Below, in pieces: positions 1,631 through 1,816 of a stretch of DNA of 2,183 nt (position 1 is its first letter; each line of letters starts with the position of its first letter). Both the position numbers and the translations under genes were made by a program. A model generated the notes under the pieces. That model ran no database searches. It was not told the origin of the DNA and saw only the letters and a program-made list of their open reading frames with translations. Where the stretch lies: sequence record OR845527.1. One strand, written 5' to 3'. Source of the DNA: Escherichia phage ECO95 1-6-1.

Positions 1631-1658
1631 GTGGGTTATGTGGGTTACGTGGTAGTTA
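1631..1658 (+). repeat. Iteron block 1: two perfect plus one degenerate tandem copy in GTGGGTTAY orientation, 9-bp period
   Basis: gtgggttatg tgggttacgt ggtagtta; copies start at 1631, 1640, 1649. Confidence 0.85.
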
Positions 1659-1692
1659 AGTTTCTTAACATTCTGATTTTAAAGGGATTGAA

Positions 1693-1772
1693 TAACCCAC
1701 CAGTAACCCACTAAACGCCACTTATAACCCACTGGCAGGGCAAAATAACCCACTGCGAAAATCGTAACCCAC
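1693..1772 (-). repeat. Iteron block 2: five perfect copies in TAACCCAC orientation
   Basis: Copies start at 1693, 1704, 1725, 1746, 1765; start-to-start spacings are 11, 21, 21, 19 bp, roughly one or two helical turns. Confidence 0.85.
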
Positions 1773-1787
1773 CTTAAAAACGGATAA

Positions 1788-1816
1788 GTGGGTTATTTCA
1801 GGGGCTGAGTGGGTTA
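1788..1816 (+). repeat. Iteron block 3: two perfect copies in GTGGGTTAY orientation, 21 bp apart
   Basis: GTGGGTTA at 1788-1795 and 1809-1816. Copy 1765-1772 and copy 1788-1795 form an inverted pair across a 15-bp A-rich spacer. Confidence 0.85.

Follow-up and report, generated by a model that had tools for sequence, protein, structure and literature searches.

Conserved iteron geometry in a probable replication origin downstream of the DUF927 Pri-Rep gene of a satellite resembling capsid-forming PICIs

According to the text of PMC6092414, the replication origins of Gram-negative PICIs are located 3' of pri-rep, and that of EcCICFT073 functions in a plasmid assay. In the case of SaPIs, the C-terminal winged helix of Rep, a protein which acts without a loader, binds iterons lying directly downstream of rep, and the origin has an AT-rich region flanked on either side by two or more iterons, the two sets pointing in opposite directions (PMC9371898). 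As reported in the texts of PMC6092414 and PMC9371898, both Rep-iteron binding and origin-driven replication have been shown for EcCICFT073 and the SaPIs. The general picture of an AT-rich region that is located downstream of pri-rep and flanked by iterons on either side has already been published for PICIs and SaPIs, and the locus described here is an ordinary example of it.

The window analysed, a stretch of 2,183 nucleotides from the sequence record OR845527.1 of Escherichia phage ECO95 1-6-1, consists of the last 1.6 kb of an ORF in frame +2 (stop codon at 1601-1603), an intergenic segment of 345 bp and, from 1949 onwards, a small ORF. The intergenic segment, 1604-1948, is with a probability of about 0.8 the replication origin of a capsid-forming PICI-type satellite, situated directly 3' of the satellite's own Pri-Rep, a relative of the SaPI Rep. 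The suggestion of the sequence-only reading that the repeats of this segment are the iterons of an origin is supported. The ORF encodes a DUF927 protein, and a full-length relative matched the SaPI Rep chain 8tch_A with an E value of 1e-13, and the SCCmec Cch helicase was also matched. The features of the window are listed in Table 1.

The window is 100% identical to a part of the 13.9-kb IMG/VR contig UViG_2724679271_000004 (L023), which encodes an antirepressor, a 709-aa DUF927 Pri-Rep, capsid protein, S78 prohead protease, portal protein and TerL. The same backbone is found in two E. coli genomes (L001 and L002) as a ~16-kb island between yhdJ and fis, where the annotation includes an integrase, an HTH regulator, an antirepressor, an Icd-like protein and DUF927, along with capsid, protease, portal, head-closure, connector, HNH, TerS and TerL proteins; no tail genes are present in the annotation of this island. 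The gene content of cf-PICIs, as given in bioRxiv 10.1101/2025.02.11.637232, agrees with that of the island, and the preprint contains no mention of origins or iterons. An island of ~14-16 kb with an integrase, regulators, pri-rep and its own capsid, protease, portal, connector, TerS and TerL genes, and without tail or lysis genes, is what was found in L001 and L002, and in L023 for the shared genes. From its genes, the element of the window looks like a capsid-forming PICI. The 111-aa ORF located 3' of the origin is kept between the window and L001 despite their different iterons. A satellite rep region with 98.8% identity to the window (72% query coverage) was also detected at 99160-101345 of the 106-kb phage record PQ569648.1 ("Klebsiella phage P12620-1"); this may reflect a chimeric record or the joint assembly of a satellite and a phage.

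Table 1. Features of the 2,183-nucleotide window (positions refer to the window; R, Rayleigh vector length).
Feature	Position	Strand	Remarks
Pri-Rep gene, 3' 1.6 kb (DUF927 helicase-initiator)	2-1603	+	Pfam DUF927, E 4e-49; 709 aa when complete (contig L023, identical to the window)
Rep C-terminal domain, predicted winged-helix specificity domain; left part of the cassette	1306-1600	+	Identity to L001 falls from 100% to ~43-50% here; tracks iteron class
Non-iteron box ACAGGTGAGG (consensus ACAyGTGAG)	1612-1621	+	~10 nt past the stop codon; position shared by most loci irrespective of iteron class
Block A, two tandem iterons (1631, 1640), 9 bp apart	1631-1647	+	9-bp tandem pair kept in 19/20 loci
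AT-rich spacer 1, including degenerate remnant 1649-1658	1648-1692		GC 0.35; 20-mer dG ~-22 kcal/mol vs window mean of -27.7
Block B, four iterons (1693, 1704, 1725, 1746), spacings 11/21/21	1693-1753	-	R (10.5 bp) = 0.99
Variable linker, module I (A+B) to module II	1754-1764		B4-to-B5 length differs between loci
Iteron B5, reverse member of the inverted pair	1765-1772	-	B5-to-C1 22-24 bp across loci, common register
Inverted-pair spacer CTTAAAAACGGATAA, 15 bp, A-rich (8/15 A)	1773-1787		A-run beside B5 recurs in other classes
Block C, two iterons (1788, 1809), 21 bp apart	1788-1816	+	21-bp spacing in 14/14 tabulable loci and in most of the wider 20-locus set
AT-rich spacer 2, candidate DNA unwinding element	1817-1883		GC 0.25; holds the least stable 20-mer sampled
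Block D, three tandem iterons (1884, 1892, 1901), 8 and 9 bp apart	1884-1908	-	Kept as a tandem triplet in most loci
Box GTTTTGTATATATACG, palindromic core GTATATATAC	1912-1927		Follows block D directly in nearly all loci, independently of iteron class and of the gene downstream
Downstream small ORF, start; right cassette boundary	1949-2183	+	111 aa in L023 (8105-8440), no Pfam family; identity to L001 ~97-100% again from 1949

The search for GTGGGTTA with at most one mismatch returned 13 matches in the window vs 1.44 expected (sd 1.21; maximum of 6 in 200 shuffles). As many as 12 of them, ten exact and two with a single mismatch, were mapped within 1631-1908, the first being located 28 nt past the Rep stop codon. 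Forward copies start at 1631, 1640, 1788 and 1809, and reverse ones at 1693, 1704, 1725, 1746, 1765, 1884, 1892 and 1901, those at 1884 and 1901 carrying the mismatch, which gives the orientation string >> <<<<< >> <<< and start-to-start spacings of 9 bp, then 53 bp, then 11, 21, 21 and 19 bp, then 23 bp, 21 bp, 75 bp and, at the right end, 8 and 9 bp. The blocks of alternating forward and reverse orientation seen by the sequence-only reading are therefore borne out by the 12 mapped copies, and the spacings within blocks, described as 9 or 11/19/21 bp, were measured as such. The inverted pair 1765/1788, noted across an A-rich spacer of 15 bp, is also present and recurs in most of the related loci with a start-to-start distance of 22-24 bp. 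The first forward block had been drawn over 1631-1658; its two copies at 1631 and 1640 were confirmed, but the third one at 1649-1658 (GTGGTAGTTA) deviates from the iteron at 4/8 positions in register and amounts to no more than a degenerate remnant. The 13th match (1003-1010), which is exact and lies inside the Rep coding sequence (EWVKW), was likewise rejected as an iteron and appears incidental, since it is kept identically in L001, whose iteron word differs.

Phasing of the copies was expressed as the Rayleigh vector length R, which equals 1 when all copies are in one phase. With a period of 10.5 bp, R amounted to 0.82 for all 12 copies of the window and to 0.92 for the central seven; this period was the best among those of 7-16 bp, and 186 of 100,000 random placements do as well. 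Tandem iterons 9 bp apart are rotated by ~51 degrees per copy.

The comparison was extended to ~25 related loci, comprising 15 contigs from a one-genome-per-species set (Winslowiella, Pantoea, Cedecea, Rahnella, Citrobacter, Pectobacterium, E. albertii, Serratia, Tenebrionibacter, Apirhabdus and others), six E. coli genomes and four IMG/VR sequences. Such elements have spread widely among enterobacterial species. Every locus possesses an over-represented 8-mer 3' of the DUF927 gene, the word itself differing between loci; the words recorded are GTGGGTTA, GCGGGTTA, GTTGGTTC, CGTGGTTC, YCGGTTCA, GTTGTCCC/CTTGTCCC, CTTATCCC and TGTTGTCTC. L001 has 11 exact copies of its iteron in 26 kb, and each of them falls within the origin. 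Some 25 loci, distributed over more than 10 enterobacterial genera and using at least eight iteron words, share the pattern >><<<<<>><<< together with its spacings. In nearly all loci, block A is represented by two or three tandem copies 9 bp apart and is followed by AT-rich spacer 1, after which come the four copies of block B, oriented opposite to A and spaced 11/21/21, and the variable linker. The second half, module II, starts with B5 and continues over 22-24 bp to the inverted C1, with C2 exactly 21 bp further, AT-rich spacer 2 and the three tandem copies of block D, which are 8-9 bp apart and have the orientation of B. Of the 15 tabulated loci, only L016, in which one copy is missing, deviates from the 11/21/21 series; the other 14 cover six iteron words, and most loci of the 20-locus set have the series as well. 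In L014 and L019, the DUF927 frame is broken, with just 167 and 124 codons open before the stop, and the origin still has the full iteron layout; these may be decaying elements or sequencing errors.

The lengths of the AT-rich spacers also follow a rule. In a common register, the distance A2-to-B1 is either 52/53 or 64/65 bp and C2-to-D1 is 53/55, 75 or 85 bp across the classes, so the differences between classes are ~11, 22 or 32 bp, or roughly whole helical turns. Sums that do not depend on the register agree with this (75-77 vs 87-88 bp for the first, and 76-77 vs 98 vs 109 bp for the second). Meanwhile, between classes, just 40% identity (range 14-62%) was measured at the spacer positions of block B, apart from a T- or A-run just 5' of each block B iteron, which is kept across them. 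Arbitrary spacing and orientation of the motif in homologous loci had been named beforehand as the result that would speak against an ordered array; what was found in ~25 loci is a layout that is kept, with the iteron word and the spacers changing around it. Such an almost base-for-base conservation of the site geometry over at least eight specificities, with spacer steps of ~11 or 22 bp, argues for a defined three-dimensional Rep-origin assembly.

The linker from B4 to B5 does not follow this rule. It is 19 bp in the window, and lengths of 17, 18, 19, 27, 28, 39, 42-45 and 169 bp were recorded across the loci. In E. albertii L013 (4620-7090), the origin is split altogether: blocks A and B follow rep, and the second half is located ~2.2 kb downstream past several ORFs, where it is complete with the C block, the AT-rich spacer, three tandem copies of block D and the TATATATAC box. 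An insertion of ~150 bp is found at the same point in L006 (4340-4500). The phase calculated per module is coherent in every locus (R = 0.87-0.96 for module I, blocks A and B, and 0.62-0.79 for module II), and R for the whole array ranges from 0.17 in L003 to 0.82, with 0.55 in L010. Judged from this comparison, the origin is made of two rigid modules on a flexible tether, and the good phasing of the entire array in the window is a particular case rather than a conserved property. A close relative, the TAACCCGC-type origin, was detected in 301 of 5426 complete E. coli genomes, O157:H7 strains included; many of the E. coli matches span either the module I half or the module II half only, which suggests that the two modules recombine separately. 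EcCICFT073, whose origin has been tested experimentally, is not among the E. coli genome matches listed.

Comparison of the window with L001 (E. coli 873.10) demonstrated that the Rep C-terminus and the origin form a compact unit of exchange. The two DNA sequences are identical up to position 1305 with the exception of one mismatch at 1267, cannot be aligned by BLAST over ~1306-1911, and are near-identical again from 1949, thus delimiting a 640-bp cassette (1306-1948 of the window, corresponding to 13306-13950 of L001). At the protein level, the Rep fragment is identical over 434 residues and only ~43-50% identical over the last ~95. The rest of the ~14-kb element, terminase and capsid genes included, is collinear with L001 and 91-99.6% identical; two further short divergent stretches are present at L023rc 1214-1486 and 9631-10046.

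In agreement with the exchange of both parts as one cassette, the C-terminal sequence of Rep clusters by iteron word, so the comparative evidence indicates that the specificity of Rep is matched to its cognate iterons. Among pairs of loci with the same iteron, the C-terminal domains are 77% identical on average (minimum 63.5%), compared with 41% in pairs with different iterons. The helicase body, however, does not follow the iteron word: it is 100% identical between the window and L001, the C-terminal domains of which share 43% identity, and the corresponding values for L003 and L013 are 93.5% and 27%. With AF2, the last 204 aa were modelled (alignment of 30 sequences, pLDDT 84) as a helical bundle followed by a strand-helix-helix-hairpin unit, and the best Foldseek match of this model is the SaPIbov1 Rep 8tch_A (E 4.6e-6, probability 1.0, query-normalised TM-score 0.46), followed by Cch; lower ranks include TcpK, a winged-helix binder of oriT, and DNA-binding domains of HSF. 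When the C-terminal 103 aa were searched by themselves against PDB sequences, no match was returned. On the basis of the model, the C-terminal domain of Rep is predicted to be a winged helix, and the residues that vary with iteron class include its wing, ...GDKGRYKKKALRKM....

From this co-variation together with the published SaPI data, we infer that Rep reads the repeats. One must bear in mind that the coding sequence of the Rep C-terminus adjoins the iterons, so that linkage alone would cause both to be inherited together in any single recombination event. Linkage could explain one cassette swap, but not the concerted change of all 12 sites in each class. The occurrence of so compact a specificity cassette between satellites that are otherwise 91-99% identical provides natural matched pairs for the study of initiator-origin recognition and of the incompatibility of co-resident satellites.

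Other signals were searched for in and around the intergenic segment. Among the 20-mers sampled over the intergenic region, the one of lowest stability, 1850-1869 in spacer 2, has a dG of -17.6 kcal/mol vs the window mean of -27.7 (sd 2.9), and ~-22 kcal/mol was obtained for spacer 1 and for 1920-1935. In 1550-2000, no intrinsic terminator and no forward-strand sigma-70-like promoter were found, two reverse-strand promoter-like matches being at chance level, and an Rfam scan of both strands gave no match at E values up to 1 and hence no sign of structured RNA. The DnaA box TTATNCACA was not found with up to one mismatch. IHF-like sites (WATCAANNNNTTR, one mismatch each) were noted at 1666-1678 and 1839-1851, one per AT-rich spacer, their count being at chance level for the window. 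The box GTTTTGTATATATACG is also present in the split origin of L013, at 7066-7082; located beside block D, this box could serve in melting or priming, or as part of a promoter. The origin model accounts neither for this box (1912-1927) nor for the one at 1612-1621.

The phasing of the window had led the sequence-only reading to propose that all bound proteins sit on one face of the DNA in a single wrapped complex. In its full form, this would mean that Rep wraps or loops the whole 280 bp with its 12 sites into one particle, as DnaA does at oriC. The coherence of the 12 window copies at 10.5 bp, the best period (R = 0.82), speaks for such a particle, as do the near-invariant 11/21/21 and 21-bp spacings of blocks B and C, the AT-spacer lengths which differ between classes by ~11 or 22 bp, and the T- or A-runs recurring 5' of the B iterons every 21 bp. 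However, the alignment on one helix face holds within each of the two modules and fails between them, where the linker varies from 17 to 169 bp and reaches 2.2 kb in L013 with no conservation of phase, and the whole-array R is only 0.17 in L003 and 0.55 in L010. Tandem copies 8-9 bp apart, with their rotation of ~51 degrees in the case of 9 bp, cannot share a face either, and Rep belongs to a ring-helicase family, not to the filament-forming initiators. Since the phasing holds within modules and not between them, a single wrapped complex is unlikely.

Two further roles for the repeats were considered, and both appear less probable still. The repeats may chiefly be transcriptional operators, at which Rep or another regulator, bound to blocks C and D, controls the downstream (packaging) genes; block D and the TATATATAC box are indeed located 40-65 nt upstream of the next ORF, and the initiators of iteron plasmids commonly autoregulate. 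It is hard to reconcile a chiefly regulatory function with the lack of a forward-strand sigma-70-like promoter in 1550-2000, with the same layout preceding unrelated downstream genes in different loci, or with the co-variation of the iteron word and the Rep C-terminal domain, which together make it improbable; an operator role would be compatible with origin function, but secondary. Packaging sites (pac/cos, TerS-binding) and partition sites are also often arrays of short repeats, yet the assignment of the present array to either of them is scarcely credible. The terminase/capsid region is ~91-92% identical between L023 and L001, which have no common iteron word, and such a complete change of the word next to so similar a terminase region excludes a packaging-site role in practice; besides, the array adjoins rep and is ~4-5 kb away from the terminase genes, and no partition genes are annotated.

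An origin at which Rep is loaded in mirrored fashion around an AT-rich spacer fits the data better than a single wrapped complex. With respect to the binding of iterons by Rep, the position of melting, the oligomeric state and the separate roles of the modules, we infer the following course of events. The C-terminal winged helix of Rep would recognise the 8-9 bp iteron (R)GTGGGTTAY, the copies of which may be viewed as two mirror-symmetric units, >> [AT-rich spacer 1] <<<< and < >> [AT-rich spacer 2] <<<. The iterons flanking each AT-rich spacer point towards it, and B5 and C1 point away from each other, so that Rep oligomers assembled on opposed iteron sets would face each other across the spacer. 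Rep would then melt the spacer, most likely at 1830-1870, where the duplex is least stable, and self-load as two opposed helicases for bidirectional replication, as has been proposed for the SaPI Rep. The B array, with its same-face spacings of 11/21/21, would most likely serve as a high-avidity recruiting or bending module working at a distance, similarly to the P4 crr.

A more general proposal, which is put forward tentatively and may well prove incorrect, is that the enterobacterial DUF927 Pri-Rep origin is a bipartite machine of fixed geometry, in which the rigid modules I and II, the latter with the TATATATAC box, have spacers changing in steps of ~11/22 bp and are separated by anything from 17 bp to 2.2 kb, and which is swapped as a whole, together with the Rep winged helix, in the form of a 640-bp specificity cassette. 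If this were true, the swaps would create replication-incompatibility classes, and the near-isogenic natural pairs would make it possible to study directly the way in which site geometry is read by a self-loading helicase. In the texts of PMC6092414 and PMC9371898, no prior description was found of the near-invariant geometry over at least eight specificities, of the ~11/22-bp quantisation of the spacers, of two modules on a tether of up to 2.2 kb, of the 640-bp cassette, or of the two non-iteron boxes.

Several known origins resemble the present one in part. The iteron plasmids of the RepA, pi and TrfA types also have initiator sites about two helical turns (21-22 bp) apart beside an AT-rich unwinding region. 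However, their repeats are direct and 17-22 bp long, whereas those described here have an 8-9 bp core and mixed orientation; their initiators are Rep proteins of the WH1-WH2 type and not helicases, unlike the DUF927 helicase Rep; and they depend on DnaA boxes, none of which was found here. With mixed-orientation repeats of 8-9 bp, no TTATNCACA site at up to one mismatch and a DUF927 Rep, the locus does not belong to the class of iteron plasmid origins. In the case of the SF3 helicases SV40 large T antigen and papillomavirus E1, two opposed hexamers are directed by short inverted sites lying around an AT-rich element, which may be central or adjacent. This likeness is a functional analogy; those are eukaryotic viruses whose initiators have different DNA-binding domains.

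Satellite phage P4 is similar as far as the layout is concerned. According to the annotation of NC_001609, crr is located directly 3' of the alpha gene, and it contains 8-bp repeats in both orientations, among them a tandem pair 9 bp apart, followed by a 43-bp gap and inverted copies; ori has copies 10, 11 and 22 bp apart, and mixed-orientation repeats spaced 9-22 bp are annotated for ori and crr (NC_001609). P4 also has two iteron clusters kilobases apart, as does the split origin of L013. On the other hand, the iteron word differs, and homology to alpha was rejected: the two proteins are not detectably related by sequence (BLASTP E 0.49), and none of the Pfam domains of alpha (Zn ribbon, Toprim, D5_N and the Pox_D5-like, origin-binding C-terminal one) is present in the Rep described here. 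The resemblance to P4, drawn by analogy of layout, is one of a shared way of working, not of membership.

The closest relatives are the PICI and SaPI origins (SaPIbov1, SaPI1, EcCICFT073), in which, as far as the texts of PMC6092414 and PMC9371898 describe them, the origin also lies immediately 3' of the rep ORF; here the stop codon occupies 1601-1603 and the first iteron starts at 1631. As in those origins, short iterons, of 8-9 bp in this case, are placed on both sides of an AT-rich region in opposite directions, an arrangement which occurs twice in the window: the forward copies 1788 and 1809 face the reverse copies 1884, 1892 and 1901 across 1817-1883 (GC 0.25), and the forward copies 1631 and 1640 face those from 1693 onwards across spacer 1. 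The array was considered by the sequence-only reading to be more structured than a simple set of iterons, which is true, but is normal for the PICI/SaPI class (PMC6092414, PMC9371898). The initiator is in both cases a self-loading helicase with a C-terminal winged helix, the Rep of the window being a homologue of SaPI Rep in sequence and fold (the winged helix is called from the predicted structure), and the element is in both cases a phage satellite. The differences are that the iterons are of 8-9 bp instead of 5-6 bp; that four blocks and two AT-rich spacers form two modules with a variable linker instead of surrounding one AT-rich centre; that fixed spacings of 11/21/21 and 21 bp are kept over at least eight specificity classes; that non-iteron boxes are conserved at both ends; and that the element, being of the cf-PICI type, encodes its own capsid and terminase.
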